Positions 1,157 to 22,687 of a DNA stretch of 32,000 nt are shown here, piece after piece. The DNA lies in NCBI GenBank assembly GCA_963695475.1, contig CAVOHA010000007.1, forward strand, positions 426,549 through 458,548, written 5' to 3'. The stretch is from Ilumatobacteraceae bacterium (GTDB lineage: Bacteria > Actinomycetota > Acidimicrobiia > Acidimicrobiales > Ilumatobacteraceae). The position numbers and the translations under genes are program-made. The notes below the pieces were generated by a model. That model was not told the origin of the DNA. It did no database searches and worked only from the letters and a program-made list of their open reading frames with translations. The first letter of the stretch is position 1; each line of letters begins with the position of its first letter.

Positions 1157-1166
1157 TCCGGACCGA

Positions 1167-2656: not shown

Positions 2657-2659
2657 CCG

Positions 2660-2704
2660 TCACGACGTCACGCAATCTCACGCAACTCACGCAACGTCAC
2701 GCGA
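2660..2704. repeat. Five direct copies of TCACG(C/A)(A/G/C)A at 8-10 bp spacing
   Basis: The TCACG cores begin at 2660, 2668, 2678, 2687 and 2697. Three copies are exactly TCACGCAA. The array lies between the convergent stops of rnz (2654-2656) and the GT4 gene (2697-2699), and the last copy overlaps the GT4 stop. Confidence 0.5.
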
Positions 2705-3758: not shown

Positions 3759-3951
3759 GATGCTCTCCTCTCTCCGCCGCGGATCGAGTGGCTTCGGACC
3801 CCATGGTTCTCGTCGGAGACGGTGGTCACCATGGTCATTGGTCCCTTGTTCGGGGTCGTCGGACCCTGGTGCACCGGATGTCGCGGGGAGGACGATGACC
3901 GTGCGGCGGTTTCGCCGCCGCATCAGCACGATCGACACAGAGGAGGAGACG

Positions 3952-4245
3952 ATGAGTACGAATGCCGTGAGGGACGCCTGGCTGGACGTCGGCGACGAAC
4001 TCGAAGCGGTTGCGTTGAAGCTGAAACTGCACCTCGAGCAGGAGCGCTCCGAGAGTGACGACTTCGAGGAGCTGCTGGAGCGGCTGGCGGAGCGCATCGA
4101 CGACGCCTTCGACGCCGCCGGGAACGCGGCAGCCGACCAGGCGGTGCGTGACGATCTTCGAGAGACCGGGCGCCGGCTCGTCGATGCCATGGGCACGACG
4201 GTGCGCGAGGCCATGCGGGCGGTCCGGTCGATGACCGGCACGTGA
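3952..4245 (+). CDS. Hypothetical small acidic, predicted all-helical protein (97 aa)
   Basis: AGGAGGAG Shine-Dalgarno at 3941-3948, then ATG at 3952 (MSTNAVRDAWLDVGDELEAV...). Coding-like composition. The gene ends 19 nt before the downstream USP start, so the two are likely co-transcribed. I recognise no family. Confidence 0.45.
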   Translation: MSTNAVRDAWLDVGDELEAVALKLKLHLEQERSESDDFEELLERLAERIDDAFDAAGNAAADQAVRDDLRETGRRLVDAMGTTVREAMRAVRSMTGT

Positions 4246-4264
4246 CGCCGGTGGGAGGAGCGAA

Positions 4265-5161: not shown

Positions 5162-6597
5162 GCGACGCGCGGAGTCGCGCGCTCACCGAGCCGGATCACG
5201 GGGATGTCCCAGCGGCGGGCGAGTTCGACCAGGACGTCGTCGTGGTCGCCGTAGACCACGCCGAGATGGTGCTCGACACCCGCACCGAAGATCGTGGCCG
5301 CCACGTCGCGGACGGGCCGATCCCAGTGGATCGTGCCGCACGTCCCGCGGTACGCGCGCGGCCGATCGAGCATCTCGCCGCCGGCGATCACGAGACCGAG
5401 TCGCCCCGAACACTGCGAAATGCGAGCGACGGTCACTCGACCGGGCTTGAGCGCGAATTCGTTGACCAGCGCCACTCGTCGATTCGGGTGCACCGTGCCG
5501 CGCACCGAGTCATCGGGGTGCGCCAGTCGCGACGACGCCACGCCGCAGTGCCACAGCACCGACGTGTCGTCGGACTCGTCGACGTCGACGAGATCCGCGA
5601 TGAACGGATCGGCCCCGGCCACGAGCTGCAGCACGAGTGCCGTGATCGAGCCGAGGACGTCGGCTTCGCAGACACCCGGCACACGATCCTCGGTCAGCAT
5701 GGCGTGCGGCGTGCAGGCGGCGCCGCCGAACCGGTCCATGCACTCGGGCCAGCAGCGCGTCGCGACTGCGGCCAGCCCGCGACCGTCGACGAAGTGGCGC
5801 ATCCCGCAGTACAGACGGGCGCTCGGCTCGAGATCGTCTCGGGTCAGTCCGGCGTCGAGCGACAGCGTGGACGAGACGCGCCCGAGCACGTGGTCGACGT
5901 CGATGCGTTCGGCGTCGGTCGCCCGATCGAACAGGTCGTCGAGCATCAGCCGGTCGACCTGCACCCCGAACATCCACTCGATGAGGTGGTCGTTCCCCTC
6001 ACACGGTTCGAAACCCGTCGGTGGCTCGCCGATGATCCCCACCCGGCTGCGATGCAGTCGCTCGATCACGCGGTCGGCCGCCCGGGCGACGTGCGGATCG
6101 AACACGGCGGGACGCGCCGCGATCGTGGCCGCCCGCACGCTCGGTGATGCGCAGGCGTCGGCGATCGCCTGCGCGACGCGCTCGCCGCTGTCGGGTTGTG
6201 CCGGGTCGACGTGGACGAACGCGCATCGGTGGCGTCGCCGACGCAGCGAGTAGGCCGCGAGGTTCGCGCCACACAGCGAGTTCAACCGCAGGCGTTCGCC
6301 GTGCCGGGCCTCGGGAAACGACCAGACGACGATCGGTACGTCCGAGGCGTCGGCGATCGAGATCACCGTCGAGGCATCGGTGAAGGTCGCTTGGAGGACG
6401 ATCACGGCGTCGACTCGCTGATCGACCGCTGACCCGACGGCCGTGGCCATCGAGACGGCATCGGTGCAGACATCGCCCTCGCCGACCATCGTGACGCCGA
6501 TGCCGGCCAACACCTGTCGGGCAGCCGACGCCAGCACGGTGCCGAGCGGTACGTCGAAGGTGGGGCGACCGAGGGTCAACACCGCTGCGGTCGTCAT
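5134..6597 (-). CDS. L-fucose / L-arabinose isomerase-like family protein
   Basis: From MTTAAVLTLGRPTFDV (ATG 6597-6595). It has an N-terminal Rossmann-like segment, LNSLCGANL, WHCGVAS and a C-terminal HHLGVVYGDH, as in FucI/AraA-like sugar isomerases. The upstream 112 codons of the ORF look non-coding. An alternative ATG lies at 6615. The 3' end overlaps the convergent USP gene by 28 nt. Confidence 0.55.
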   Translation of the reverse strand: MTTAAVLTLGRPTFDVPLGTVLASAARQVLAGIGVTMVGEGDVCTDAVSMATAVGSAVDQRVDAVIVLQATFTDASTVISIADASDVPIVVWSFPEARHGERLRLNSLCGANLAAYSLRRRRHRCAFVHVDPAQPDSGERVAQAIADACASPSVRAATIAARPAVFDPHVARAADRVIERLHRSRVGIIGEPPTGFEPCEGNDHLIEWMFGVQVDRLMLDDLFDRATDAERIDVDHVLGRVSSTLSLDAGLTRDDLEPSARLYCGMRHFVDGRGLAAVATRCWPECMDRFGGAACTPHAMLTEDRVPGVCEADVLGSITALVLQLVAGADPFIADLVDVDESDDTSVLWHCGVASSRLAHPDDSVRGTVHPNRRVALVNEFALKPGRVTVARISQCSGRLGLVIAGGEMLDRPRAYRGTCGTIHWDRPVRDVAATIFGAGVEHHLGVVYGDHDDVLVELARRWDIPVIRLGERATPRVAQSSVSQSG

Positions 6598-6795
6598 CGC
6601 GCCGCCATCCAGCATCGAACGTCGTCCACATCTCCACGATGGGCGCATGCGGCCTGCGTCGACAGTGCCGAAAGCCCCACCGGAGTGCATGTGACCGAGG
6701 ACCCTGGGCGAGCACGCGGTGGCGGTGAACCATGGATGTTCTCGACGAGCGAGACGCCGTCTTGCTGCCGACACGACTGGTGAAAGGACTGCATC

Positions 6796-7008
6796 ATGAA
6801 GGCGCACACGGGTGACACACTCGTCATTTCGGGCCACGAGGTCGGCCGCCCCAAGCGAGTCGGCAGGATCGAGGAGGTCCGTGGCGACGACGGTGGGCCT
6901 CCCTACCGCGTGCGGTGGCGCGAGGACGACCACGTCACGCTGCTGTTCCCCGGCCCCGACTGCACGATCGAACCGATGGGTTCCGACGACGAGAAGGGAG
7001 CGGAGTGA
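6796..7008 (+). CDS. DUF1918 domain protein (70 aa)
   Basis: MKAHTGDTLVISGHEVGRPKRVGRIEEVRGDDGGPPYRVRWREDDHVTLLFPGPD matches the characteristic DUF1918 pattern (GD.L...G......R.G.I.EVRG.DG.PPY.VRW). GAAAGGA Shine-Dalgarno upstream. Confidence 0.7.
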   Translation: MKAHTGDTLVISGHEVGRPKRVGRIEEVRGDDGGPPYRVRWREDDHVTLLFPGPDCTIEPMGSDDEKGAE

Positions 7009-7466
7009 TGAAGGTCAGTGACTTCACCTGGCGCGACCCGGTGACGATCTCAGTGTCCGACACGATCCAGGCCGCGGCGCAGTTGCTCGCCGACGCCGGT
7101 GTCGGTTCGTTGGTCGTGGTGGACGGCGATCGCCCGGTGGGCGTCGTCACCGATCGGGACCTGGTGGTCCGGGCGATGGCGCGGGGCCTCGGGCCCGACG
7201 GCCGGGTCGACGGCGTCATGTCGATGGGCGTCGTCGCACTGGATGCCGACGACGACGTCGAGGAGCTGTACGCCGTGTTCGGTCGTCATGCGATCCGGCG
7301 GGTTCCGGTCGTCGACCGCGACCGAGTGGTCGGCGTGATCAGCCTCGACGACGCGCTCGTCTCGACCGCGAGCCAGCTGGCGGTGCTGTCCGGCGTGCTC
7401 TCCACCCAGATCGACTACCCGCACGTCCGGGACGAAGCCGAGCCCCCGGCGGTGATCCCCTCCTGA
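7008..7466 (+). CDS. CBS domain-pair protein (152 aa)
   Basis: The ATG at 7008 overlaps the DUF1918 TGA (TGATG). Two CBS repeats are present (GVVTDRDLVVRAM and GVISLDDALV). Confidence 0.8.
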   Translation: MKVSDFTWRDPVTISVSDTIQAAAQLLADAGVGSLVVVDGDRPVGVVTDRDLVVRAMARGLGPDGRVDGVMSMGVVALDADDDVEELYAVFGRHAIRRVPVVDRDRVVGVISLDDALVSTASQLAVLSGVLSTQIDYPHVRDEAEPPAVIPS

Positions 7467-7481
7467 CCGCGCGGTCCTTGG

Positions 7482-7506
7482 CCTCTGGCGCTGCACGGCG
7501 CAGAGG
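7482..7506 (+). terminator. GC-rich hairpin downstream of the CBS gene (possible terminator or attenuator before ppsA)
   Basis: CCTCTGGCG (7482-7490), loop CTGCACGG, then CGCAGAGG (7499-7506). This gives an 8-bp stem with one bulged G and no U-tract. Confidence 0.25.
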
Positions 7507-7544
7507 TCGACGATGGGAGTTGGGCCTCACGAAAGGATCCGGTC

Positions 7545-9866
7545 ATGGCGACCGCCGACATTCAGACAGTTCCTCGTTCCGACTCGCCGAGTGCCGCCGA
7601 GCCCTCGACGATTGCGCTCTCCGAGGTCGGATCGTCCGATGTCCTCCTCGTGGGAGGCAAGGGCGCCAACCTGGGAGAGATGCTCGCGAGCGGCTTTCCC
7701 GTTCCCGACGGCTTCGTCGTGACCGCGGCCGCGTACCGACGGGTGGTCGACGAGTCGGGGATCCGACAGCGCCTCGCCGACATCACCGCAGCCGCGGCGA
7801 CGGCGGATGCCGGTGAGCTGACCGAACTGGCGCGCACGGCCCGCGACCTGCTGGGCGAGGTGTCGCTGCCCGATGACCTCATCGCCGAAGTGACGCGTAT
7901 GTACGCAGCCCATTGCGCCGGCGCGCTGGTCGCCGTGCGATCGTCCGCAACGGCCGAGGACACCGCGGAGACCTCCTTCGCGGGGATGAACGAGTCGTTC
8001 ACCAACGTCACCGCCGTCGACCTCCTCGATCGGCTGATCGACTGCTGGATCTCGCTGTTCGGTGAGCGTGTCGTGTCCTATCGAGCCGAACGCGGGCTGG
8101 CCGACGAGCCGGCGATCGCCGTGGTCGTCCAGCAGATGGTGAGTTCGGACCGCTCGGGCGTCATGTTCACCGCTGATCCGGCCCGCCGTGACCAGGTGAT
8201 GATCGAGGGTGCCTTCGGGCTGGGCGAGATCGTCGTGTCCGGCGCCGTCGAACCCGACACCTACCGCGTCGATCGGGAGTCGGTCGGCGTCCGTGAGATC
8301 CGCATCGGGCACAAGGCGGCGCGGATCGTGAGCGGTCCCGACGGCGATCGTCACGAGGTCGTCGAGGGGAGCGAAGCCTGGAGCCGGGTGCTGTCCGACG
8401 AGGAGATCCGGGCCGTCGCCTCGATCGGCCTCGACATCGAGCGGCACTACGGTGTCCCCCAGGACATCGAGTGGTCCTACGTCGGCGATCGTTTGTACAT
8501 CGTGCAGTCGCGGCCGATCACCACGCTCGACATGGAGGCCGACGTCGACGACGAGCCGCTGCTTCGCGGCCTGGGGGTCGGTACCCGATCCGGTGTCGGT
8601 GCGGTGCGGATCCTCACGTCCCCGGCCGACGGCCACCTGCTGGCCGACGGTGACGTGTTGGTGGCCGAGATGACATCGCCCGACTGGGTGCCGACCATGC
8701 GCCGTGCTGCGGCCCTCATCACCGATGCCGGGGGCAGCACGTGCCATGCGGCGATCGTCAGCCGCGAGCTGGGCCTCCCCGCTGTCGTCGGCACACGCTC
8801 GGCCACCGCCGACCTGCGCGACGGCGATGTGGTCACGGTCGACGCCCGCCGGGGCATGGTGTTCGCCGGTGGACAGCATGTCGCTGTCCCCACCGTGGTC
8901 GAGCGCAGCGCGCAGACCGTGACGACGGGTGCCGAGCCCCTCGCCACGCGGTTGTACGTGAACCTGGCGATCGCCGACCGGGCCGAGGAGATCGCGGCGC
9001 TCGATGTCGACGGCGTGGGCCTGCTGCGCGGCGAGTTCATGGTGACCGAAGCGCTTGCCGGCCGTCATCCACGTGCGCTGATCGCGAGCGGTGGACAGGG
9101 CGAGTTCGTCGACCGCATGTCGTCGCAGCTCGGTCGCATCGCGTCGGCGTTCGCGCCGCGGCCGGTCGTGTACCGGACGATGGACTTCCGGTCCAACGAG
9201 TTCCGGGGGCTCGAGGGCGGTGAGCAGTACGAACCGCTCGAACAGAACCCGATGATCGGCTACCGCGGGTGCTATCGCTACCTCCACGACACCGAGACCT
9301 TCGCGCTCGAACTCGAGACGCTCGCTCGGGTCCGCGAGGCGTCGCCCAACCTGCACGTGATGATCCCGTTCGTCCGCACGAAGTGGGAGCTCGAAGCGTG
9401 TCTCGAAGCGATGGCGCAGAGCCGACTCGGTCGCCAAACCGGTCTGCGGACCTGGGTCATGGCCGAGGTGCCGTCGGTCATCCCACGGATCGCGGAGTAC
9501 GCGGCGCTCGGGATCGACGGCGTGTCGATCGGGTCCAACGACCTCACGCAACTGATGCTCGGCGTCGATCGTGACTCCGAGGTGCTGGCCGAGCTGTTCG
9601 ACGCTCGCGACACCGCGGTGCTGTGGGCGATCGAGCAGATCATCTCGGCGTGCCATCGTGCCGGGATCACGTCGTCGCTGTGCGGCTTGGCGCCGTCGTC
9701 CGATCCGGAGTTCGCGGAACTCCTGGTGCGGATGGGGATCACGTCGATTTCGGTCGACGCCGACGCGGTCGGGCCGGCCCGACGAGTCCTCGCGTCCGCT
9801 GAACGGCGAATCCTGCTCGAGCACGCGAGATCCCGGCCGATCACCGGCGACGGGAGCAGTGGGTGA
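7545..9866 (+). CDS. ppsA: Phosphoenolpyruvate synthase (pyruvate, water dikinase)
   Basis: N-terminal ATP-grasp region ([23 protein letters not shown]). Phosphohistidine swivel motif [22 protein letters not shown]-terminal PEP/pyruvate TIM barrel (IGSNDLTQL, catalytic-Cys loop SSLCGLAPS). 773 aa. Confidence 0.9.
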
Positions 9867-12664
9867 TGACCACCGAGGTCTGGCAGGTGGCGCGTGGCGA
9901 ACTCGGGCTCGCATCGGACGCGAACGACGTGAACATCGCGGACCTGGCCGTGTCGCGCCACGTGCGCGCCGGCCGCGGGGAGCAGACCGCCCTGCGGTGG
10001 TTCTCGCGCGACGACCTCGACACCGAGCGCCCGGTCGACATCACGTACGCGATGCTCGAACACCGCATCAACCGATTCGCCGGTGGGCTGCACCGCCACG
10101 GCTTCGACCCCGGGTCCGGTGTGGCAACGCTCGCCGGGCGCATTCCGGAGCTGTACGTCGCGGCGCTCGGCACGCTGCGCGCCCAGTGCGTGTACTCGCC
10201 GTTGTTCAGCGCGTTCGGCCCGGAGCCGATCGCGCAGCGGCTCGCGATCGGCAAGATCCGCGTCCTGGTCACGACGCCGGTGCAGTACCGACGCAAGGTG
10301 ACGAAGATCCTCGACCGCCTCCCCAGCCTCGAGCTCGTGTTGATCATCGGCGCCGACGAGGGCTCGTTGCCCGATCCCCCCGACACCCGAACGACCGTGA
10401 TGTCGTTCGGTCGCTTCGTCGGCGAGGGCCACGATGTGTACGCCGCCGCCGCCACTGCCCCCGACACGCCGTCGCTCCTGCACTTCACGAGCGGCACGAC
10501 GGGGGCGCCGAAGGGAGCGGTCCACGTGCACGAAGCGGCGGTTGCGCACTACGCCACGGCGCGGTCGGTGCTCGACCTGCACAACGGTGACGTGTACTGG
10601 TGCACCGCCGACCCCGGATGGGTGACCGGTACCTCGTACGGCATCGTCGCCCCGCTGCTGCACGGCGTCACGTCGATCATCGACGAAGCCGACTTCGATG
10701 CGGCGCGGTGGTATCGGATCCTGCGGGACCAGGCCGTCAACGTGTTCTACACCGCACCGACCGCGATCAGGATGCTCGAACGCGTCGGCGACGACGCGCA
10801 ACCCGGCGACTTCCCGGCGTTGCGGCTGGTGGCGAGCGTCGGTGAGCCACTCGACGCGGAGTCGGTGCTCTGGGCGCAGCAGGTGTTCCGGGTGCCCGTG
10901 CTCGACACGTGGTGGCAGACCGAGACGGGAGCGATCATGATCGCCAACCGCAAGGATGACGAGGTCCGGCCCGGGTCGATGGGCCGTCCGGTCGACGGGA
11001 TCACGGCGACGCTGCTCGAACGAGATGCGCAGGGCGAGTTGATCCTCGGTCCGGAGGGGGCGGCGCGCGAGGTGGTCGAGCCGGGAGCGACCGGCGAGAT
11101 CGCCGTGCGCGCCGGGTGGCCGTCGATGTTCCGCGGCTACCTCGACCGTGACGAGAAGTACCGGTCCTGCTTCGTCGAGGCGGGTGATGGTGCCGACGGG
11201 GATTGGTACCGATCGGGCGACCTCGCCCGACGTGACGAGGACGGCTACTTCTGGTTCGTCGGCCGCGGTGACGACGTGATCAAGACCGCCGGACACCTGA
11301 TCGGGCCGTTCGAGGTCGAGGCGGTGCTGGACGAGCACCCCGCAGTGGTCGAATCCGGGGTGATCGGCAAACCCGACCCGACGGCGGGAGCGGTGATCAA
11401 GGCGTTCGTCGTCCTCCACCGCGGTCACGAACCGAGCGCGGAGTTGCACACCGATCTCATGGCGCACTGTCGGCGTCGTCTCGGCGCGGCGGTGTCGCCG
11501 CGCGAGATCGAGTTCGCCGACTCGCTCCCGCACACCCGCAGCGGCAAGATCATGCGGCGGGTCCTGCGGGCCCGCGAGCTGGGCGAAGACGAAGGCGACA
11601 CGTCGACACTCGAGACCGTCCCGTCCACGACGGGGGCCCGAACGATGACGCGCTTTCGACTCGACGGTGTCACCGCAGACGAAGCCCGCGGATTGCTCGG
11701 TGACATGATCCGAGTCCGGGTGTTCGAAGAACGGTGCGCCGAGTTGTACGCCGAGTCGAAGATCCGGGGGTTCTTGCATCTCTACATCGGCGAGGAGGCG
11801 GTGGCGGCCGGCGTGATCGGTGCGCTCGATCCGGCGGACAACGTCCTCGCCACGTACCGCGAGCACGCGCACGCCCTGCTGCGTGGTGTCCCCGCCGAAT
11901 CGATCATGTCCGAGATGTTCGGCAGGGCGACCGGGTGCTCGGGCGGGCGGGGTGGCTCGATGCACCTGTTCGACGAGTCGACCCGCTTCTACGGCGGCAA
12001 TGCGATCGTCGGCGGGCACCTCCCACTCGCCGTCGGCCTGGCGTTGGCCGATCAGATGCTGCACCGTCGAGCCGCCACCGTGTGCTTCTTCGGCGAGGGT
12101 GCGATGGCCGAGGGGGAATTCCACGAGGCGATCAACCTCGCCGCGCTGTGGAACCTCCCGGTCCTGTTCTGCTGCGAGAACAATCGTTACGCGATGGGCA
12201 CATCGCTCGAATCCAGTGAGTCGCAGGTCGACCTCGCGCTCAAGGCGGCGGCCTACGCGATTCCGGCCTGGGTGGTCGACGGGATGGATCCGTTGGAGGT
12301 CCGTCGCGCGGCGCGCCGCGCGCTGGCGACGATCGAGGCGGGCGGAGGCCCGGTGTTCATCGAGTTCCAGACGTATCGGTTCCGGGCGCACTCGATGTTC
12401 GACCCCGATCTGTACCGGGACCCCGCCGAGATCGAGTACTGGAAGCAACGGGACCCGATCGACGTCCTCGGCCGGTGGCTCGCCGCCGAGGAGCTGGTCA
12501 CGACCGCCGAGGTCGACGCACTGTGGGAACGGGCACGATCCGAGACCGATCAGGCGGTGGTCGCGGCCGACGCTGCGCCACTCGAACCCGTCGAGGGGCT
12601 GCTCGAACACGTCACCGCGGCTCGTGCCGGCCGACACGGAGAGGAGCGGAACGATGTCCACTGA
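9866..12664 (+). CDS. In-frame fusion: AcsA-type AMP-forming acetyl/acyl-CoA synthetase (N-terminal, about 9866-11614) joined to the TPP-dependent 2-oxoacid (pyruvate/acetoin-type) dehydrogenase E1 alpha subunit (C-terminal, 11645-12664)
   Basis: Synthetase motifs: [64 protein letters not shown] 10-aa linker [10 protein letters not shown] follows with no in-frame stop. E1alpha motifs then appear: [54 protein letters not shown]. The start ATG at 9866 (or GTG at 9863) overlaps the ppsA TGA. Confidence 0.8.
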
Positions 12665-13679
12665 CACGGCCTCCGACGTCGTCGAGACAGGGCCGGTTCT
12701 GGAAACGACGTACCGCGAGGCGATGCGGCTGGCGATCCGTGAGGCACTGGAGACCGACGACCGTGTGATCGTGCTCGGTGAGGACGTCGCCGACTACGGC
12801 GGCACGTATGCGGTGACCAAGGGCCTCCACGAGGAATTCGGACGCGACCGCGTGCGCAACACACCGCTGTCCGAGTCCGGCTTCGTCGGTGCCGGCATCG
12901 GCGCAGCGCTCGGCGGGCTCCGGCCGATCGTCGAGATCATGACCGTCAACTTCAGCCTGTTGGCGCTCGACCAGATCGTCAACACGGCGGCCACGCTGCT
13001 CCACATGTCGGGCGGGCAGTTCAACGTCCCGGTCGTGATTCGGATGACCACCGGCGCGGGTCGGCAGTTGGCGGCGCAGCATTCTCACAGCCTCGAGGGC
13101 TGGTACGCACACGTTCCCGGGTTGAAGGTCGTCGCCCCGGCGACCGTTGCAGACGCACGGTGGATGTTGCCGACGGCGCTGGCCGACCCGAACCCCGTGA
13201 TCATCTTCGAGCACAACGCGCTGTACGGCATGAAGGGAACGCTCGATCCGGACGGATCGCCCGTCGACCTCGAGACGGCCGCGATTCGTCGCCGGGGCGA
13301 CGATGTCACCCTGGTGGCGAGCGGCGGCATGGTCCCCAAGGCGCTCGCCGCCGCGGCGACGCTCGCCGAACGCGGCGTGTCGGCCGAGGTGGTCGATCTC
13401 CGATCGCTGCGCCCACTCGATGTCGCGACGCTCGAGACGTCGGTGACCAGGACACACCATGCGGTCGTCGTCGACGAGGGCTGGCGGACCGGTGGGTTGA
13501 GCGCGGAACTGTCCGCCGTGATCACCGAGGCGTGCTTCTGGACGCTCGACGCTCCGGTGCGCCGGGTGGCGGCCGCCGAAGTACCGATCCCGTACGCCAA
13601 GCACTTGGAGGACCACGCGATTCCCCAAGCGGACGACATCGTGGTCGCGGCCGTCGAACTCCTCGAGGAGGGCGCGTGA
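12654..13679 (+). CDS. 2-oxoacid dehydrogenase E1 component beta subunit
   Basis: [65 protein letters not shown] is the canonical PdhB/AcoB N-terminus, and a transketolase C-terminal-like region follows. GGAGAGGAG Shine-Dalgarno. The start overlaps the upstream gene by 11 nt. Confidence 0.9.
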
Positions 13680-14854
13680 GCGACGCAGGGGTCACGACCG
13701 CCGCGGCGGCGACCGCGACGTCCGAAACCGAGTCGTCGATCGAGTACGCGATGCCGTCCCTCGGCGCGGACATGGAGGAGGGTGCGGTCGTCGAGTGGCT
13801 GGTCGCCGTCGGCGATCACGTCGAGCGAGGACAGGTGGTCGCACGCGTCGAGACCGAGAAGTCCGACATCGACATCGAGATCTGGCACGAGGGGATCGTC
13901 GACGAGATCCTCGTGCCGACGCACCGCACGGTCCCCGTCGGGACCCCCCTCCTGCGGTTCCACGCCGCCGGAGCAGCCGTGGACCGGCCCGCGACGCTCG
14001 ACCCGGTCTCCTCCGGCGTCATCCGCGCCACACCGTTCGCACGCCGGCTCGCTGCGGATCGCGGCGTCGAACTGCGTGACATCGCCGGCACCGGGCCCGG
14101 TGGCGCGGTGCGTGCGCGCGACGTGCCCGATGTGTCCGTGCCCGTGGCGAGTCCGGCGCCGACGCCCGCCGTGCCGCGGGAGCACCGCGGCGAGCGGATG
14201 CGAACGGTCATCGCGCAGCGGATGGACCGGTCGAATCGTGACATCCCGCAGTATCGGTTGGAACGGACGGTCGACCTCGATGCGCTGCTCCGTCACCTCG
14301 CCGCCATCAACGAGGACCGCCCGGTGGCGGAGCGGATCGTGCCGGCCGCAGCATTCGTTCGAGCTGTCGCCCTGGCCGCCGGACGTCATCGAGCGCTCAA
14401 CGGGACGTGGATCGACGACGGCTTCCAGCCCGGACCCGCCGTGAACGTGTCGATCGCGATCTCGCTGCGCACCGGTGGACTCGTCACGCCGACGATCCCC
14501 GATGCCGACCGCCTGTCGCTCGACGACACGATGGCACGGATCCGCGAGTACACGACGGCGGCGAGGTCCGGGACGCTGCGATCCGAGTGGACGCGTGCCG
14601 ACAGCACGATCACCGTGACCAACCTCGGCGACCGCGGCGCCGACCTCGTGCACGGGTTGATCTCACCACCGGAGGTGGCGCTCGTGGGGTTCGGACGGAT
14701 CCTCGAACGTCCGTGGGTGGTCGACGGCGCGGTCGTCCCGAGACCCGTCGTCCACGTCACCCTCGCTGCCGACCACCGCGCAACCGACGGCGCGGTCGGC
14801 AGCCGCTTCTTGTCCACTCTCACCCGCATCCTGGAGGAGCCCGATCAGACATGA
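13676..14854 (+). CDS. Dihydrolipoamide acyltransferase (E2) with one lipoyl domain
   Basis: The GTG start overlaps the E1beta stop (GTGA). Lipoyl domain [18 protein letters not shown]...[11 protein letters not shown], with a lipoyl-lysine context. Peripheral subunit-binding domain [33 protein letters not shown]. Catalytic domain with DHRATDG. Confidence 0.85.
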
Positions 14855-15111
14855 GCAACGACACCGCGACCATCCGACTGCGGCGCGCGATCGACGATGC
14901 GATCTCGGCCGTCGCGCCCGACGTGACCGACGAACTCGCCGACCTCGATCCGGATGTCGACCTGTTCGAGGAGTTCGGACTCGACTCGATGGACCGCCTC
15001 AACATCATGACAGCGCTCGCGCAGTCGACCGGCGTCGAGATCTCCGACGACCGGTATCCCTGGCTGACGTCGATCAACCGCCTGCTGGCCGAGTTGTCGT
15101 CGGCCCGGTGA
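14851..15111 (+). CDS. Acyl carrier protein-like (phosphopantetheine-binding) protein, 86 aa
   Basis: The ATG overlaps the E2 TGA (ATGA). An acidic four-helix-sized protein with the carrier-protein serine motif LFEEFGLDSMDRLNIMTAL. Confidence 0.7.
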   Translation: MSNDTATIRLRRAIDDAISAVAPDVTDELADLDPDVDLFEEFGLDSMDRLNIMTALAQSTGVEISDDRYPWLTSINRLLAELSSAR

Positions 15112-15937
15112 TCACGAAGGCGACACCCGGGGCGGGTGCGGGAGGCGGAAGACGAGCACGGGGCACGGCGCGTGGCGAACGAAACCGGATGTGACGCTGC
15201 CCATCGTCAGCCGGGACAGACCGCTGCGCCCGTGGGACGACGCAACGATCAGCGACGCGTGGTGTCGCTGCGCGTAGGCGCACACCGCAGCGACCGGGTG
15301 CCCATCGTGCAACTCGTCGAACTCGACCGAGTGGTCGGACGCCTCGCGTAGCTCGCTGGCCAGTCGGGCGAGGTAGACGGCGTCGGTCGCCTCCCCACCG
15401 TCACCCGGTGTGGACGAGCCCGTCGCGTGGACGATCCACGGTGTGGTCCCCAGCTCGACCGCCCAGGCCACACCCAGTGGCACGGCCGCCTCTGACGCCT
15501 CCGAACCGTCGACCGTGATCACGAGGGGGCCGCAGAAGTCGTCGGGTTCGGCCTGCGGGCCCACCAGGACGATCGGGCCGAACGAGTGCCGAAGGATCTG
15601 ATCGGCGACGCTTCCGACCACTGCGGCGGAGCGCCCCTTTCCGTGCGACGCCATCACGACGAGAACGTCGGGCACCGACTCGACCAGCGCGCTGATCGTT
15701 TCGCCGACGGACCTCGCGCTCGAGCTGGACGTTCGTCGTCACCGGGACGTCCATCGGCGCGCGTCGATCGATGTCCACCGCCAACTGCTCGCGAGCGAGG
15801 TCTGCATCGACGGGATCCGACTCGACCTGCACCACCTCGACCTTGGCGTCGAACCGCCGCGCCAACGCGATGGCGACGTCGAAGCCGCGCCACGAAGCAG
15901 CCGATCCATCGATCGGCACGATGATGTGCGTGGCCAT
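15112..15937 (-). pseudogene. Tandem universal stress protein interrupted by a frameshift near 15709-15738
   Basis: After a GGAGGGGAG Shine-Dalgarno, ATG 15937-15935 starts MATHIIVPIDGSAASWRGFDVAIALARR...VTTNVQLERE. That frame then turns into Arg-rich nonsense. The USP sequence continues in the adjacent frame as SVGETISALVESVPDVLVVMASHGKGRS...LVGP, followed by a complete second USP domain that ends CPVLVF. This could be a real frameshift or a sequencing indel. Confidence 0.6.
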
Positions 15938-16142
15938 GTCGCTCCCCTCCGATACTCGGGCGTTCCGCGGGTCCACATCCAGATACGCGCGTTCGAGGTC
16001 GTGCCGCCAGGTCCGTTGGTCACTTCGGCGTCGTTTCGGCGTCACGACGCAGGGACATTCGGCCCTTGCCGTCGACGTCGCGTCGCGCGATCAATCGAGA
16101 CAGAGCCGACACGTCGCATGTCGGCAGGAAGGTGACCGAACG

Positions 16143-16391
16143 ATGTGTTTCACCGAGCCCGGATGTGTGCAGTCGATCGACGGTTCCATGGTTCGCGTCG
16201 ACACCGTGCACGGAGTGTGCGACGCATCGACACGGATGGTCGAGGCCGCCGGCACGACCGTCACGCCCGGCGACTGGGTGCTGATGTCGCTCGGCCTGGT
16301 CGTCGACGTCGTCGACGAAGCCGAAGGACGTGCGCTGCTCGAGCAGATGCGCGAACTGCACATGGGGGTCGAGCCATGGCCGATTCCGTGA
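16143..16391 (+). CDS. hypC: HypC/HybG/HupF-family [NiFe]-hydrogenase maturation chaperone
   Basis: The N-terminus begins with the obligatory Met-Cys: MCFTEPGCVQSIDGSMVRVD. It is followed by GDWVLMSLGLVVDVVDEAEG, matching the HypC pattern MC.(G/A).PG....(I/V)D ... GD(W/Y)VL.H.G.A. 82 aa. Confidence 0.75.
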   Translation: MCFTEPGCVQSIDGSMVRVDTVHGVCDASTRMVEAAGTTVTPGDWVLMSLGLVVDVVDEAEGRALLEQMRELHMGVEPWPIP

Positions 16392-17308
16392 GTGGGCTCC
16401 GCCTGGCGCTCGTCGCCGCGGGTGTATCGGGCGTGGCGGTGTACGTGAACGGGGAGGCGGTCGGACGGTTCTCCTCGGCAACGGTCTACACCACCGGAAA
16501 GAACCTCGTCGCGGGGCTGCTGCTGGTGACACTCGCGATCGCCCTGCCGCGCGCCGGGGGATCGCCTGCGCCCGCCGCCGGTCGGATGTGGTCCACCCGG
16601 GAGCGGCTCGGTCTCGCCGCCGTGGCGTTGATCGGCGGTGCGGTGCCGTTCGTCCTGTTCTTCGAGGGGCTCGCCCGTGCGACGTCGAGCGATGCCGCCT
16701 TCCTGCACAAGACCCTCGTCGTCTGGGTGGCCGTCTTTGCCGTCGCGCTGCTCGGTGAGCGACTCACGGCCCTCCATGTCGGCGCCATCGCACTGCTGAT
16801 CGCCGGGCAGGTCGCTCTCGCCGGAGGGATCAGCTCGCTGCACGTCGGGGCCGGCGAGGCGATGATCCTGGCGGCGACGATCTGCTGGGCAGCCGAGTTG
16901 ATCCTGGTGAAGCGTCTCGTCGAACGGCTGCCATCGACGACGGTCGGTGCGGCTCGGATCGGGGGCGGTGCGGTGCTGCTCGTCGTGTGGCTGGCGTTGT
17001 CCGGACGCCTCGACGAACTCGTGTCGCTGTCCATGTCGCAGTGGGCGTGGCTCCTCGTCACCGGAGGCATCCTCTCGATGTTCGTGACGGTGTGGTTCGC
17101 GGCGGTCGCCCGGGCGCCGGTCATCGACGTTGCGGCGTTGCTCGTGCCGGCTGCGGTGATCACCGGGCTCATTCGGCTCGCGGCCGAAGGAAACACTGCG
17201 CCGATCCAGGTGGTCGGCTGGTCGCTGATGCTGCTCGGGGTGGCTGCGGTGATCGCAGGGCGCCGCGCCGATCAGCGCGATCACGGTGTGATCGGGGCGG
17301 TGACGTGA
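16376..17308 (+). CDS. DMT-superfamily (EamA-like) permease, about 10 TM segments
   Basis: Two EamA-like halves of hydrophobic helices are separated by ERLTALH. The gene overlaps the hypC 3' end. An alternative GTG start at 16388 would form a GTGA overlap with the hypC stop. Confidence 0.7.
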   Translation: MADSVSGLRLALVAAGVSGVAVYVNGEAVGRFSSATVYTTGKNLVAGLLLVTLAIALPRAGGSPAPAAGRMWSTRERLGLAAVALIGGAVPFVLFFEGLARATSSDAAFLHKTLVVWVAVFAVALLGERLTALHVGAIALLIAGQVALAGGISSLHVGAGEAMILAATICWAAELILVKRLVERLPSTTVGAARIGGGAVLLVVWLALSGRLDELVSLSMSQWAWLLVTGGILSMFVTVWFAAVARAPVIDVAALLVPAAVITGLIRLAAEGNTAPIQVVGWSLMLLGVAAVIAGRRADQRDHGVIGAVT

Positions 17309-18027
17309 ACGACCCGATCGGCGTGGCTCGCTTCATGCGGTACGCCGCCCCGCCCAATCAGCGCGGATTCTGCGGGCCGTCGGGGTTCGGATCGCTCGAC
17401 CCGACGATGCCGGAGGCCCACGCGGAGGCCCGCCACCGGGCGAAGGAGTTCCTGGGTGCGTATCCGTATCTCGAGCTGTTGGCGGGCGCGGCCGGACTCG
17501 AGGACCCGCTCGCCGACGTCGCGGTCGAGGCGTACTGGCTCGGCAATCGGATGGCCGCCCGCGTCTCGACCGGCGATTTCGGGCGGTCGCTCGCCGATCG
17601 GTTCCGTGTGCGGAGCGGTCGCAACTGGGCGCCCGTGGAGTCGGCCGTGCCGGGTGCTGTCTGCAATCACGCGTTCCATGTGCTCGTCGCCTCCCCGTGG
17701 GTCGGGCTGATGCGCAGTGGCGTGGTCGACGAACCGCTCGCGATCGTCGACGAGTGTCGAGTCAGCTGGGGCAAGGTCGTGTCGATCGACGACGCGCCGC
17801 GTCACTCGGTCGAGCGCACGCCACTCGAGTGGCACAACGGCCGTCTCCTTCCCGGCCGCCTCGAGACGGTCGAGGTGTTCAGCGAGCTCCCGCTGTCGCT
17901 CGGCGATCACGTCGCCCTCCACTGGGGGTGTGTGTGCGACGTCCTGTCTCAGCGTCAACTCGCGTGGCTGCGCTCCGTGACGGCGTCGCAACTCGCCCTG
18001 TCCCACTCGATCGGACGGCCCTGCTGA
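17305..18027 (+). CDS. Conserved hypothetical protein with an N-terminal YAAPPN.RGFCGP domain and a C-terminal HypC-like segment
   Basis: The GTG at 17305 overlaps the permease stop (GTGA), and the gene's own stop overlaps the hyhB ATG (TGATG). The C-terminal CRVSWGKVVSIDD...GDHVALHWGCVCDVLSQRQ parallels the HypC motifs. I recall similar actinobacterial DUF proteins but cannot verify the family here. Confidence 0.55.
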   Translation: MNDPIGVARFMRYAAPPNQRGFCGPSGFGSLDPTMPEAHAEARHRAKEFLGAYPYLELLAGAAGLEDPLADVAVEAYWLGNRMAARVSTGDFGRSLADRFRVRSGRNWAPVESAVPGAVCNHAFHVLVASPWVGLMRSGVVDEPLAIVDECRVSWGKVVSIDDAPRHSVERTPLEWHNGRLLPGRLETVEVFSELPLSLGDHVALHWGCVCDVLSQRQLAWLRSVTASQLALSHSIGRPC

Positions 18028-19208
18028 TGAGCCCGCGTGCCGCTACACCACCCATCGTGACCGGTCCGGATGGGCTGACCGGCATCGTCGACGAACTCGA
18101 TCGCGCCGGCTTCGACGTCTGGGGGCCGGCCGTGCGCGACGGCGTCATCGTCACGCGTCGCATCGACGGGAGTGACGAGTTGCCGCTCGGATACCGCGTG
18201 GAGCAGTCGCCGGGTTCGTCTCGCCTGCTCCAGACCGGCGACCGCTCACGCTTCGGGTGGGCGGTCGGCCCGCAACCGTGGAAGCCGCTGCTCCATCCGC
18301 CATCGGTCACCACGATGCACATCACCCAGCGGTCCGCCGCGCAACCCGTGACCGTGAGCCTGCGTGGCCGGCCGCCACGACCGCTGGCGCTGTTCGGGAT
18401 GCGGCCCTGCGATCTCGCCGCACTCGAGACATTGGATCGCGTCCTCATCGATGCGCCGCCGGTCGCCGAGCCCACCTACGACGGTCGTCGCACCGACGCG
18501 TTCCTCGTGGTGGTCAACTGCGCCGTTCCCGCGTCGACGTGCGCCTGTACGTCGTTCGGGACGGGACCCCACGTCGGCGAGCCCGACGGCGATCATGCCG
18601 GCCACGATCTGGAGATCACCGAACTCCTTCCGTCCGATCCCGCCGAGGATCCCGAGTACGTCGTCGCCGCGATGAGCGAGCGAGGCGCTTCGCTGATGGC
18701 CCGTGTCGCCGAGCGCGTCGCGGTCGACCAACTCCGAGATCGACACGTCGCGGCAATCGCCGATCAACGGGCGGCCGCGGCGACGGCGATCTCGCGCCGT
18801 GCGCCCACCGATCGCGTGCGCGGCGCCTTGGCAGATGCCCACGATCTGCACCGCTGGAGCGAGCTCGAAGGGCAGTGTGTCGCGTGCGGCAACTGCACCG
18901 CGGTGTGTCCCACGTGCTTCTGCACGACCGTCAACGACATCGGCGACCTGACGGGAACGCAGGTCGAGCGACACCGTGACTGGGAGTCGTGCTTCTCGCT
19001 CGAGTTCAGCCGTCTGGGTGACCACTCCGTTCGCTCGTCGGTTGCGTCTCGCTACCGCCAGTGGATGACACACAAGCTCGGAACGTGGCACGACCAGTTC
19101 GGCGAGTCGGGCTGCGTCGGGTGCGGTCGGTGCACGACGTGGTGTCCGGTCGGTATCGACTTCTTCGCTGTTGCCGATGGCATCGTCGATGCAGTGGAGG
19201 CGCGGTGA
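18027..19208 (+). CDS. hyhB: Group 3b [NiFe]-hydrogenase beta subunit (AsrA-like 4Fe-4S dicluster protein)
   Basis: Two ferredoxin-type cluster motifs are present, CVACGNCTAVCPTCFC and CVGCGRCTTWCPVG. The architecture and position upstream of the gamma, small and large subunits match sulfhydrogenase/Hyh operons. Confidence 0.8.
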   Translation: MSPRAATPPIVTGPDGLTGIVDELDRAGFDVWGPAVRDGVIVTRRIDGSDELPLGYRVEQSPGSSRLLQTGDRSRFGWAVGPQPWKPLLHPPSVTTMHITQRSAAQPVTVSLRGRPPRPLALFGMRPCDLAALETLDRVLIDAPPVAEPTYDGRRTDAFLVVVNCAVPASTCACTSFGTGPHVGEPDGDHAGHDLEITELLPSDPAEDPEYVVAAMSERGASLMARVAERVAVDQLRDRHVAAIADQRAAAATAISRRAPTDRVRGALADAHDLHRWSELEGQCVACGNCTAVCPTCFCTTVNDIGDLTGTQVERHRDWESCFSLEFSRLGDHSVRSSVASRYRQWMTHKLGTWHDQFGESGCVGCGRCTTWCPVGIDFFAVADGIVDAVEAR

Positions 19209-20056
19209 TGTCCGCTGCCGAGCTCGTCGACATGCCCGTTCCCCACCGCATCGTCGCGCGTCACGAGGAGACCGTCGACGTGGTGACCCTGCGCGTGCAG
19301 CCGGTCGCGACGCAGCTCCCGGACTTCCAGCCGGCTCAGTTCTCGATGATCGGGGTGGTGGGTGTCGGCGAGGTCCCGATCTCGATCAGTTCGACCTGCG
19401 ACGACCGGACGGCCCACGACTACACGCTGCGCCGCGCCGGCGCGGTCACCAACGCACTGTGGAATCGCCGAGTCGGTGACGTGGTGACCGTGCGCGGACC
19501 GTTCGGCCGACCCTGGGACCTGCAACGCGCCGACGGTCGTCACGCGGTGTTCATCGCCGGCGGCATCGGGATCGCGCCGCTGCGCGCCGCGATCGTCGAA
19601 CTTGCCACCCACCGGGCGGCCACCCCGAGCCGCCTCTCCGTCCTGGTCGGCGCAGCGACGCCGAGTGACCACCTCTACGAACCGTGGCTGGCCGACCTCG
19701 CGGCCGGCGGCGTCGAGGTGCTGCGGTCGGTGGATCGAACGGGTGACGTCGATGACTGGCCACATGCGATCGGATTCGTGACCGAGCTGATTCCCCCGGT
19801 CGTCGCGGAGTGGACCGGGAACGTTGCGGTCAGCGCCTACGTGTGCGGCCCGGACGCGATGATGTCTGCTGCCATCGACACCCTGCGTCGGTGCCGTGTT
19901 GCACCCGCCGATGTCGAGGTGACCCTCGAGCGCAACATGCAGTGTGCCAACGGTTGGTGTGGGCACTGCCAGCTGGGGCCACTGCTGGTGTGCCGAGACG
20001 GCCCGGTTGCAAGCGCAGTCGAACTCGGCGACCTGCTCGAACGGAGCGAGTTGTGA
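19208..20056 (+). CDS. hyhG: Group 3b [NiFe]-hydrogenase gamma subunit (FAD/NAD(P)-binding, 2Fe-2S; AsrB/PyrK-like)
   Basis: Ferredoxin-reductase-type fold ([19 protein letters not shown]). C-terminal cluster motif [22 protein letters not shown]. The ATG overlaps the hyhB stop (TGATG). Confidence 0.8.
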
Positions 20057-20832
20057 ACCGGCCCGTGACGCTCGGTCGCCCCGAGGCCGTTCCCACGCTC
20101 GCCGTCTGGAAGTTCGCGTCGTGCGACGGATGCCAGTTGTCGCTGCTCGACTGCGAGGACGAGCTGTTGGCGATCGGCAATTCGATCCGCATCGCGTCGT
20201 TTCCCGAGGCCTCGAGTGCGATCGTCGACGGCCCGTACGACCTCTCGCTCGTCGAAGGCTCGGTCACCACGCCGGACGATGTCGAACGGATCCGGGCGAT
20301 CCGTGCCGCGTCGACGACCCTGGTGACGATCGGTGCGTGCGCGACGGGAGGTGGGATCCAGGCGCTGCGCAACGGTGCCGACATCGAGGAGTATCTCTCG
20401 ATCGTGTACGCCCACCCCGCGTACATCTCGACGCTGGCGACCTCGACGCCGATCGCCGACCACGTGGACGTCGACTTCGAACTCCGCGGATGCCCGATCG
20501 ATCGGCGACAACTCGTCGAGGTCGTCGCGGCCTACCTGACCGGCCGTCCGCCACGCATCGCATCGACGAGCGTGTGTACCGAGTGCAAGGCTCGTCGAGT
20601 CGCGTGCGTCATGGTCGTCGACGGCGAACCGTGCCTGGGTCCGGTCACGCACGCCGGGTGCGGCGCGCTGTGCCCCTCGTTCCGCCGCGGCTGCTACGGG
20701 TGTTTCGGGCCGGCCGAGACCGCTGACACGGCAACCCTCGATCGTCAGCTCGAACGACTCGGACTCGACGAGCGCGACCGGGAACGCCTGTGGCGGGGGT
20801 TCAGCGGGTGGAAGCTCGGAGGCCCGCGATGA
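20053..20832 (+). CDS. hyhS: Group 3b [NiFe]-hydrogenase small (delta) subunit
   Basis: NuoB/hydrogenase-small-subunit pattern [23 protein letters not shown], plus a C-terminal Cys-rich region ([27 protein letters not shown]). The GTG start overlaps the hyhG stop (GTGA). Confidence 0.85.
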
Positions 20833-22139
20833 CCCACAAACACGTCGACTTCCGCGTGCCGACGCTCGCCCGTGTCGAAGGTGAGGGTGCCCTGCACGTC
20901 GAAGTGCGTGACGACGTCATCACCGACCTTCGCCTGGAGATCTACGAGCCGCCCCGCTTCTTCGAGGCGTTCCTGCGCGGACGGGGATTCGGCGAACCGG
21001 TCGACATCACCGCTCGTATCTGCGGGATCTGCCCCGTCGCCTACCAGATGTCGGCGGCGGCGGCACTCGAGCAGATCGCCGGCGTGACCGTCGACGGCCA
21101 ACGCCACCAACTCCGTCGACTGCTGTATGCGGGCGAGTGGATCGAGAGCCACGTGCTCCACATCGGCTTCCTCCACGCTCCGGACTTCCTCGGTGCCAGT
21201 TCGGGCTTGGAGCTCGCTGCCAGCGACCCCGAGCTGATCACGAACGTGCTGCGCCTCAAGAAGATCGGCAACGACGTGATGGAGGTGGTCGGCGGCCGGC
21301 CGATCCACCCGGTCAACGTCCGGCTCGGAGGATTCCACCGAGCGCCGGACCGAGAGGCCATCGCGGCGCTTGCCGAGCCCCTCGAATGGGCGCACGGAGC
21401 GGCGGTCGACCTGGTCCGCTGGGTCGCCGGATTCGACTTCCCCGAGCTCGAGGTCGACCACGAACTGGTGTCGCTGCGCGGGGTCGACTGCTACCCGGTC
21501 CTGGGTCGCAGGATCGTGTCCGATCGCGGGCTCGACCTCGACGTCACCGAGTTCGACCGCGAGTTCTCCGAGGAGCACGTTGCACACTCCACGGCACTCC
21601 ACGGGCGTCGTCGAACCGGTGACATCTACCTCACCGGTCCGCTGGCCCGGTGGGCCAACAACCGTGACCTCGTGCCCACCGAGGTCGACGCGCTCGCAAT
21701 CGAACTCGGTGTGGCGACGGTCGAACGCAATCCGTTTCGCAGCATCGTGATCCGTGCCCTCGAAGTGCTGATCGCCGTGATCCAGGCCGAAGAGATCGTC
21801 GCTGCGTATGCGGAGCCGGAACCGTCGGCGGTCGACGTGATCCCGTCGGCAGGTGTCGGTTGGGGGGTGACCGAAGCACCGCGGGGAATCCTCGTCCATC
21901 GCTACGAAACCGACGCGGCGGGCACGATTCTCGACGCCCGCATCATCCCGCCGACCGCGCAGAACCAACCGGCGATCGAAGCCGACGTTCGCCGAGTGGT
22001 CGAAGATCACCTGGCCCACGATCGCACCGACGCCGAGCTCCAGCACCGGTGTGAGACGGCGGTACGAAACCACGACCCGTGCATCTCGTGCGCCACCCAC
22101 TTCTTGTCCGTCGACGTCCGACGGGTGGACGGGCGATGA
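20829..22139 (+). CDS. hyhL: Group 3b [NiFe]-hydrogenase large (alpha) subunit
   Basis: N-terminal Ni-Fe ligand motif [10 protein letters not shown] and C-terminal DPCISCATH, followed by a 12-aa tail of the kind removed by the endopeptidase. 436 aa, the size typical of group 3 enzymes. The ATG overlaps the hyhS stop (ATGA). Confidence 0.9.
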
Positions 22140-22687
22140 ACGCCGCCCGTCCGGCGGTGGTGATCGGCGTGGGTCATCGCGACCGTGCCGACGACGGCAT
22201 CGGCCCCGCGGTGGCAGAGGCACTCGGCGAGCGCAGCGACCAGGTGCGCACGATCGTGCGCGAAGGCGACCTCGCGGTGCTGCCGCTGCTGTGGGACGGC
22301 GACGACGACGTCGTGATCGTCGATGCGTTGGCCGGCGTCGGGTCGCTCGGACAACTCGTCGAGCTCGACCCCGACGACCTGACCGCGGGTGCCGGGCTGT
22401 CGACGCACGGGCTGAACATCGCCGACGGCATCGAGCTGGCCCGTCGGCTGCACCGGTTGCCGGCCCAACTGCGGGTGTTCGGCGTGACGGGACAGGACTT
22501 CGGGTACGGGCCGATGTCGAGCAGCCTGCGTCGGCGCGTCGACCCACTGGTCGAGGAGCTGATGCTCGAACTCGGAGTTGCGGAGGTTCAGGTCGTCGCC
22601 GGGGAGGGCGGCGTGCGACGATCGACCGATGCCGACCAATCGCCGTGTAGCCCTGACCCGCCGTCCGATCGGTCAGGCCACCCCTGA
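22136..22687 (+). CDS. Hydrogenase maturation endopeptidase (HycI/HoxW-like)
   Basis: VVIGVGHRDRADDGIGPAVAEAL ... VVIVDA ... LSTHGL is the conserved protease pattern (GN..R.DDG.G; D; H). The ATG overlaps the hyhL stop (ATGA). A low-complexity C-terminal tail of about 35 aa overlaps the next gene by 59 nt. Confidence 0.75.
   Translation: MNAARPAVVIGVGHRDRADDGIGPAVAEALGERSDQVRTIVREGDLAVLPLLWDGDDDVVIVDALAGVGSLGQLVELDPDDLTAGAGLSTHGLNIADGIELARRLHRLPAQLRVFGVTGQDFGYGPMSSSLRRRVDPLVEELMLELGVAEVQVVAGEGGVRRSTDADQSPCSPDPPSDRSGHP

Follow-up and report, generated by a model that had tools for sequence, protein, structure and literature searches.

The stretch analysed here, which we call the window, comprises 32,000 nucleotides from an Ilumatobacteraceae bacterium (assembly GCA_963695475.1, contig CAVOHA010000007.1, forward-strand positions 426,549 to 458,548) and carries an operon for a [NiFe]-hydrogenase of group 3b type, in which the third of eight overlapping genes encodes a 240-residue protein of the family DUF6390. 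Judged by its sequence, this protein is probably a metal-binding assembly factor related to the maturation protein HypC, and the best-supported account of its context is that in many lineages, including that of the window, a module of hypC, a transporter gene and DUF6390 stands where the genes for HypA, HypB, HypD, HypE and HypF stand elsewhere. The DUF6390 gene starts with GTG, which overlaps the stop codon of the upstream permease gene eamA (GTGA), and at its other end the stop codon, TGA, shares bases with the hyhB start codon ATG; the eamA ATG in turn lies 16 nt within the 3' end of the hypC-family gene that precedes it. The group 3b operon set of four structural genes and an endopeptidase is complete, an assignment made from Pfam domains and motifs, and the large subunit has both of its CxxC motifs intact (a ten-residue motif and DPCISCATH). 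The genes of the operon are as follows.

17305-18027, + strand: DUF6390 gene, 240 aa, PF19927 at E 5.7e-64
16143-16391, + strand: divergent HypC-family gene (hypC*), 82 aa, PF01455 at 34.3 and 39.6 bits against a cut-off of 28.5
16376-17308, + strand: eamA, EamA/DMT-family permease, PF00892 at E 1.7e-21 in two stretches
18027-19208, + strand: hyhB-like Fe-S subunit of a group 3b-type hydrogenase, PF17179 (Fer4_22) at E 1.1e-30
19208-20056, + strand: hyhG-like NAD(P)/FAD-binding subunit, PF00175 and PF10418
20053-20832, + strand: hyhS, hydrogenase small subunit, PF01058 at E 5.3e-21
20829-22139, + strand: hyhL, [NiFe]-hydrogenase large subunit with a short C-terminal extension, PF00374
22136-22687, + strand: hycI-type maturation endopeptidase, PF01750 at E 1.3e-6

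The window protein matches PF19927 at 216.3 bits against a cut-off of 25, with residues 5-233 aligned to profile positions 4-237 of 244, and a whole-genome profile scan returned the same assignment. An earlier note on this DNA had overlooked that the family already has a Pfam name, as well as the transporter that accompanies it (EamA or an ATP-binding cassette (ABC) importer) and the near-constant absence of HypD, HypE and HypF from genomes that carry the module. The family comprises 1629 clusters at 50% identity when matches up to E 1e-3 are counted and 393 at E up to 1e-30, and a search with the window protein recovered 600 homologues. Relatives are encoded in at least 582 species genomes, the 80 nearest loci belong mostly to Actinomycetota with some in Chloroflexota, and lengths of 230-290 residues predominate among the 150 best representatives. 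No NCBIfam model matched the protein, Pfam and NCBIfam scans of each half separately found nothing besides DUF6390, and the literature library that was searched yielded no paper on DUF6390, PF19927 or the combination of hypC, EamA and hydrogenase, and nothing relevant on hydrogenases without hyp genes.

Conservation in this family falls on potential metal ligands in both halves of the protein. In an alignment of 60 sequences, C23, H122, C151, H206 and W207 are invariant, while H125 and C211 are each missing from a single sequence, and the window protein answers to the family pattern of a stand-alone two-domain protein of about 240-270 residues in which these five invariant residues are retained. 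The conserved cysteine-containing segment that the earlier note had seen near the N-terminus held up well, as F10, P16, P17, N18, G21, C23 and G24 are invariant in two separate alignments of 37 sequences; R12 and P25 are invariant in the first of these and invariant or nearly so in the other. The two domains and their conserved residues map to the DNA as follows.

17305-17754, + strand: N-terminal helical domain, residues 1-150, with C23 at 17371-17373, H122 at 17668-17670 and H125 at 17677-17679
17755-18024, + strand: C-terminal HypC-like domain, residues 151-240, with C151 at 17755-17757, H206 at 17920-17922 and C211 at 17935-17937

Profile comparison indicates that the C-terminal ~90 residues are a HypC-type domain whose cysteine is buried in the chain, and the predicted fold is in keeping with this. 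We aligned a DUF6390 profile covering residues 146-238 of 60 sequences with a HypC profile built from 21 canonical HypC genes of other Actinomycetota and 9 of the window's type, and hhalign gave a probability of 86-90% (P 1.5e-6 to 5e-6) and a score of 35.8, which none of 300 column-shuffled HypC profiles reached (mean 10.1, standard deviation 2.1, maximum 18.3); a reversed profile scored 16.8 and the N-terminal domain scored 14.0 against HypC. Since this score lies far beyond chance, the observation that the end of the protein mirrors the two signature blocks of HypC was right. In the extended alignment, Cys151 falls on the N-terminal cysteine of HypC, which confirms that the equivalent cysteine sits about 150 residues into the chain, and the block GDHVALHWG, which contains His206, falls on GDxVLxHxG of HypC, with an insertion of ~15 residues in DUF6390. 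In HypC the iron-site residues are usually numbered Cys2 and His51, the role of the histidine being known from work in E. coli. An AlphaFold2 model of the full-length protein predicts a beta-barrel at residues 154-213 followed by a helix at 216-236, and Foldseek aligned this model to Thermococcus kodakarensis HypC (2z1c_B) over 79 columns with a template modelling (TM) score of 0.66, normalised to HypC, at E 0.023. Some likeness to HypC, the absence of which would have spoken against the earlier observation, is thus seen in the model as well as in the significant profile similarity, although ribosomal uS17 OB folds score slightly better than HypC in the Foldseek search. A hidden Markov model (HMM) search of the PDB placed the HypC entries 3vyr and 2z1c, weakly (E 1.2), in the same register as the profile alignment.

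The N-terminal half is confidently modelled as a helical domain that has no relative of solved structure. The full model, built from a 37-sequence alignment, has a mean predicted local distance difference test score (pLDDT) of 92 and a predicted TM score of 0.91, with helices across residues 1-151, and the domain modelled alone still reaches a pLDDT of 85. Foldseek found no relative of the domain model in the PDB (best E 3.9, TM below 0.26), and searches of PDB and Pfam sequences with the domain found no match. We also considered that it might be a remnant of HypD and rejected this, as hhalign against HypD gave E 0.41 when the N-terminal domain was compared and E 0.13 when the whole protein was.

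We examined the distribution of DUF6390 in 401 Actinomycetota genomes, which include the window's own (G000) and are otherwise at least 90% complete. The family occurs in 19 of the 401 genomes, and all 19 have a match to the hydrogenase large subunit and to HypC, compared with 282 and 227 of the 401 genomes overall, respectively. DUF6390 is thus not equally common in genomes that lack a [NiFe]-hydrogenase, the outcome that the earlier note had named as fatal to its proposal. To place these genes in context, we surveyed the neighbourhoods of the 80 loci nearest the window's clade by tblastn and HMM mapping together with pre-computed gene calls. EamA is encoded immediately upstream of DUF6390 in 54 of them, 50 of which also have HypC. 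In this arrangement, which we call type I, hyhBGSL-hycI accompanies hypC-eamA-DUF6390 in three relative orientations, the genes overlap, and the DUF6390 proteins share 44-75% identity with that of the window. In a further 18 loci (type II), 11 of them with HypC, DUF6390 instead adjoins an ABC system whose components are a binding protein of the SBP_bac_11/SBP_bac_6 kind, a fused double permease and a TOBE-domain ATPase; HycI and a 1h-like large subunit are encoded at several of these loci as well, and the nearest NCBIfam models of the ABC system are the 2-aminoethylphosphonate-type PhnS2/T2/U2, with matches far below their cut-offs. A third arrangement is found in Mycobacterium paraense, where the gene order is hypE-hypC-hypD-DUF6390 with a 4-bp overlap between hypD and DUF6390; the cluster further includes NifU, hycI and hypF, and genes of the Phosphodiest and PEP_mutase families follow DUF6390. 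Together, these data show that hypC-eamA-DUF6390 is a conserved, translationally coupled module and that the family is linked to hydrogenases yet is not specific to group 3b, the specificity suggested earlier being contradicted by the 1h-like large subunits in some of its clusters and by its position immediately behind hypD in M. paraense.

The small HypC that had been noted two genes upstream of DUF6390 is indeed recognised by PF01455 and its product begins MCFTEPG, but it is a divergent member of its family in which serine replaces the conserved histidine (GDWVLMSLG versus GDxVLVHxG when aligned with the 21 canonical HypC proteins). This replacement is a quirk of the window lineage, which His206 of DUF6390 may offset. 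As a hallmark of module HypC proteins in general it was rejected, for it is confined to the window lineage, most other HypC proteins of the module have the histidine, and many of type I retain GDWVVVHSG.

HypD is missing from nearly every genome that carries the module, and so were HypE and HypF wherever they were sought. In the type I genomes G000, G326, G351, G125 and the closed G067 we found no HypD, zf-HYPF, HypF_C, HypA or HypB and no HypE above the cut-off, whereas in the control genomes G391, G249 and G370, relatives whose hydrogenase is of the same kind but which pair it with a canonical HypC and lack DUF6390, HypD was detected at E about 1e-150. Across the sample HypD is present in 220 of 401 genomes, and HypC occurs without it in only 10; eight of these 10 carry DUF6390, compared with 11 of the 217 genomes that have both HypC and HypD (naive Fisher P 2e-8, which is overstated because related genomes are not independent). 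The eight (G000, G326, G017, G009, G067, G116, G125 and G351) belong to seven families and also lack HypF and a true HypE, and the remaining two are fragmented assemblies, one of which (G108) has a true HypE. Three of the eight, G017, G009 and G116, have 1h-like large subunits and keep HypA without HypD, HypE or HypF, G009 having HypB as well; in G116 and G017, as in G067, DUF6390 lies beside the ABC system and in G009 beside another binding protein (Peripla_BP_2). HypD and HypF_C were likewise absent from all five further genomes searched, namely the closed chromosome of a metagenome-assembled genome (MAG), OY969694, and the isolates Fodinibacter luteus JCM 17809, Pedococcus cremeus CGMCC 1.6963, Nocardioides aquiterrae JCM 11813 and Cellulomonas sp. 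APG4, the last of which has eamA-DUF6390 without hyh genes within 10 kb. Among 50 additional module genomes, a few of which may coincide with genomes of the sample (e.g. L100 with G017), HypD was not found in 49.

A direct comparison is afforded by G391, a 99% complete genome of the same genus as the window's, which has an orthologous operon with an 83% identical HyhL and no module. By blastn, window positions 6997-15080 are syntenic with positions 1-8051 of its locus L160 and window positions 18072-22543 with positions 8216-12729, and the ~3.0 kb between these blocks in the window corresponds to ~165 bp in G391.

15081-18071, no strand assigned: segment of ~3.0 kb found in the window and not in G391, holding a split Usp gene (- strand), the divergent hypC, eamA and DUF6390, delimited by blastn synteny

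In G391, hypB, hypA and hypF-hypC-hypD-hypE lie ~80 kb downstream of the hydrogenase operon on the same contig. The window genome retains the flanks of this hyp cluster in the same order on contig C7, 2.6 kb apart rather than 8.9 kb as in G391, with a Rieske/glutamate-synthase-like gene between them, and tblastn with HypD, HypE and HypF over its whole assembly found no match. Because the site is empty between retained flanks on a single contig, the absence of these genes from G000 is not just an assembly gap, and the missing hyp cluster together with the module present as a 3-kb insertion amounts to a natural swap within one genus. A maximum-likelihood tree of 54 large subunits extends this picture: genomes with Hyp proteins are nested inside those with DUF6390 (G391, the clade of G249, G293 and G370, and G158 paired with G067), and the well-supported branches require at least three switches between the two types. 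The Ni-Fe motifs are nonetheless identical in both (a ten-residue motif and DPCISCA[TA]H), and the short cleavable tail is common to both. In the window genome, the end of contig C7 (519350-523099) recurs as a duplicate on contig C42 (431-4373), and both copies match positions 3835-4099 and ~13030-14072 of the G391 locus L161, which looks like assembly redundancy at a contig end.

We consider it somewhat better than an even bet that DUF6390 is a hydrogenase assembly factor in which a helical domain is fused to a HypC-type barrel and which acts together with HypC and a transporter. Under this model, the barrel would keep the HypC iron-site pair as Cys151 and His206. The partners of the protein would be the small HypC from two genes upstream and a dedicated membrane transporter, which is EamA in the window and an ABC importer elsewhere, and the three together would acquire the iron unit of the [NiFe] site, retain it and deliver it to apo-HyhL. 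In the window genome, where HypA, HypB, HypD, HypE and HypF are missing, this three-gene module would be the only accessory machinery besides the endopeptidase. Metal may be bound by C23, H122, H125, C151, H206 and C211, and DUF6390 may contact HypC or HyhL directly. Since module carriers nearly always lack HypD, HypE and HypF, an alternative maturation module is a stronger reading than the decoy that had been considered alongside a scaffold or new maturation factor; of that earlier pair of suggestions, the role in assembly survives and its restriction to group 3b enzymes does not. A bolder form of our model, which we hold only tentatively, makes hypC-transporter-DUF6390 a self-sufficient alternative to HypA, HypB, HypD, HypE and HypF in a widespread set of Actinomycetota and in some Chloroflexota, whose [NiFe]-hydrogenases, ordinary in other respects, would have their iron centre built or acquired without the HypCD scaffold or cyanide synthesis by HypEF, with DUF6390 as scaffold or acceptor and the transporter supplying metal or a precursor.

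Comparison with known maturation proteins sharpens what such a factor would and would not resemble. Its C-terminal domain aligns with the whole of HypC and its kin HybG, HupF and HoxL (PF01455, TIGR00074; 2z1c, 3vyr), is predicted to have a barrel and C-terminal helix like theirs, keeps a cysteine and a histidine aligned to the iron-site pair and is encoded in hydrogenase or hyp operons. It differs from them in forming the rear of a 240-residue protein in which Cys151 is not a free N-terminus, in its extra hairpin of ~15 residues, in the motif HW..VC where HypC has H.GFA, in being accompanied by a separately encoded small HypC and in being invisible to the Pfam HypC model. Like HypD (PF01924) it occupies a gene position beside hypC, and most carriers have it in the absence of HypD, but it lacks the 4Fe-4S cysteine set, CGxHxH and GPGCPVC, has no sequence or profile similarity to HypD and coexists with it in Mycobacterium. 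HoxV and HupK, as described in PMC12134894, are likewise extra, lineage-restricted assembly proteins, on which the Fe unit is held on its way from HypCD to the large subunit; they resemble large subunits and act downstream of HypCDEF, whereas DUF6390 resembles HypC and occurs without HypDEF. A second protein with a C-terminal HypC-like domain and an internal cysteine is encoded in the same M. paraense cluster as DUF6390 (L074, 6080-6799), a 239-residue fusion to an SIS_2-like domain with an hhalign probability of 95% to HypC, but its N-terminal domain has a sugar-isomerase fold; a relation of DUF6390 to this fusion was considered and found no support by profile beyond the shared GDxVxxH block. 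Canonical Hyp-dependent maturation, finally, is represented by G391, which has HypA, HypB, HypD, HypE and HypF, none of which was found in G000 or the other type I genomes tested. Current reviews (PMC12134894, PMC12130793) state that all [NiFe]-hydrogenases have the NiFe(CN)2CO cofactor and that the six Hyp proteins are necessary.

Other explanations account for parts of these observations. DUF6390 could be a chaperone that only passes iron or another metal from the transporter to HypC and takes no part in ligand synthesis, carriers without HypD, HypE and HypF then relying on unrecognised genes or on an iron free of CN and CO. The transporter that is constantly adjacent (EamA at 54 loci, the ABC system at 18), the invariant cysteines and histidines and the coexistence with complete Hyp sets in Mycobacterium are all in keeping with this, as is the iron source of the cofactor, which PMC10847431 describes as unresolved in E. 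coli. We nevertheless regard this explanation as unlikely, in that it leaves the strict pairing with loss of HypD, HypE, HypF, HypA and HypB unexplained and that the PhnS2/T2/U2 matches of the ABC system do not indicate a substrate. EamA proteins, moreover, are often exporters. Less likely again is a holdase, decoy or quality-control factor whose HypC-like domain would, in the manner of HupF and HoxL, bind to the apo-large subunit so as to protect or regulate it and would carry no iron. An internal cysteine in such a domain would suit this role, a second internal-HypC fusion exists in mycobacterial clusters (the SIS_2-HypC protein), and further HypC-type proteins with protective or scaffold roles, such as HupF, HoxL and HoxV/HupK, are known (PMC12134894). 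The alignment of invariant Cys and His residues with the HypC iron site, together with three more in the N-terminal domain, fits metal binding better than docking, and neither the transporter partner nor the absence of HypD, HypE and HypF would be explained.

That DUF6390 is not a hydrogenase factor at all, but a transporter-coupled metabolic or sensing protein that happens to lie near decaying relic hydrogenases, seems to us highly improbable. The loci L067 (genome G186), L077 and L130 do have DUF6390 and a transporter with no hydrogenase gene within 10 kb, and the Phosphodiest and PEP_mutase family genes of M. paraense could be read in the same way. Against this stand the presence of a hydrogenase and HypC in 19 of 19 carriers, a count across the phylum opposite to that expected, the overlaps of DUF6390 and its transporter gene with hypC, hypD and hyhB, and the homology of its domain to HypC. 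Nor do the hydrogenases look like relics: 44 related 3b-type hyhL loci keep both cysteine motifs and the cleavable C-terminal tail, identical to their Hyp-bearing relatives, and this retention across Acidimicrobiia, Micrococcales, Nocardioidaceae and others is unlike decay.

Several points weigh against our preferred view of DUF6390 as a HypC-related assembly factor in a module that replaces other Hyp proteins. Foldseek places generic OB folds (ribosomal protein uS17) slightly higher than HypC, the Pfam HypC model misses the C-terminal domain (a scan of residues 141-240 by themselves, with E allowed up to 10, returned PF19927 only), and the internal position of the HypC-like cysteine means that it cannot serve as the free N-terminal residue; in HypC, PMC12134894 states, the N-terminal cysteine (C2) is essential for holding Fe(CN)2CO together with C41 of HypD. 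Comparison with the HypD profile and Foldseek revealed no recognisable catalytic motif or known fold in the N-terminal domain, and nothing in the module explains the synthesis of cyanide or CO. The window genome is 83% complete, a concern that the empty syntenic hyp site eases and does not remove, no completeness figures accompany the absence calls in genomes reached through their loci, and the sample of 80 loci is biased, these being the ones most like the window's clade. Eleven of the 19 sample carriers, and Mycobacterium, have DUF6390 beside full Hyp sets, and this coexistence indicates that it is not simply a substitute for HypD. The function itself we infer from sequence, predicted fold and gene context.

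The significance of these findings is that close relatives share a group 3b-type enzyme of ordinary appearance, with identical motifs at the metal site, and yet have either the full Hyp set or only hypC, a permease gene and DUF6390. If the enzymes accompanied by the module alone are active, either the Fe(CN)2CO unit would be made or obtained by an unknown route, or the iron site of this hydrogenase-like enzyme would be a different one. Either outcome would alter the way in which genomes and metagenomes are scored for hydrogenase genes and could shrink the set of genes needed for heterologous production, and the cultured carriers Fodinibacter luteus, Pedococcus cremeus and Nocardioides aquiterrae make the question directly testable. 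The findings also offer a first functional lead for a family of ~1,600 sequence clusters.

The surveyed loci also contained several features that bear on the wider gene neighbourhoods. In a closed Mycobacterium genome (L022, G231:C1:2956004-2956123), all that is left of DUF6390 is a stretch of 40 residues immediately behind hypD, corresponding to profile positions 11-51, which suggests a recent loss. In an uncultured Acidimicrobiales MAG (L144), the large subunit continues without a stop into a HycI-type endopeptidase domain in an open reading frame (ORF) of 596 residues, possibly a fusion of substrate and protease. Between the 1h-like hydrogenase and DUF6390 of G017 (L059), a genome without HypD, HypE and HypF, lie three consecutive genes of 85-88 residues without a Pfam match and three CbiA/ParA/NUBPL-like P-loop NTPase genes (4539-5316 and 7573-9896).

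Within the window itself, a tandem universal-stress-protein gene at 15112-16045 on the - strand, divergent from the upstream hypC-family gene and inside the 3-kb insertion, appears to be split over two frames, through either a frameshift or an assembly error, and the resulting ORFs (15401-16045 and 15112-15675) both match Pfam Usp. Further upstream, a single ORF of 933 residues at 9863-12664 on the + strand encodes in one chain an enzyme of AMP-binding (acyl-CoA synthetase-like) type and the E1 alpha component of a 2-oxoacid dehydrogenase, two parts that are encoded by separate genes with a 4-bp overlap on L053, a contig related to the window.

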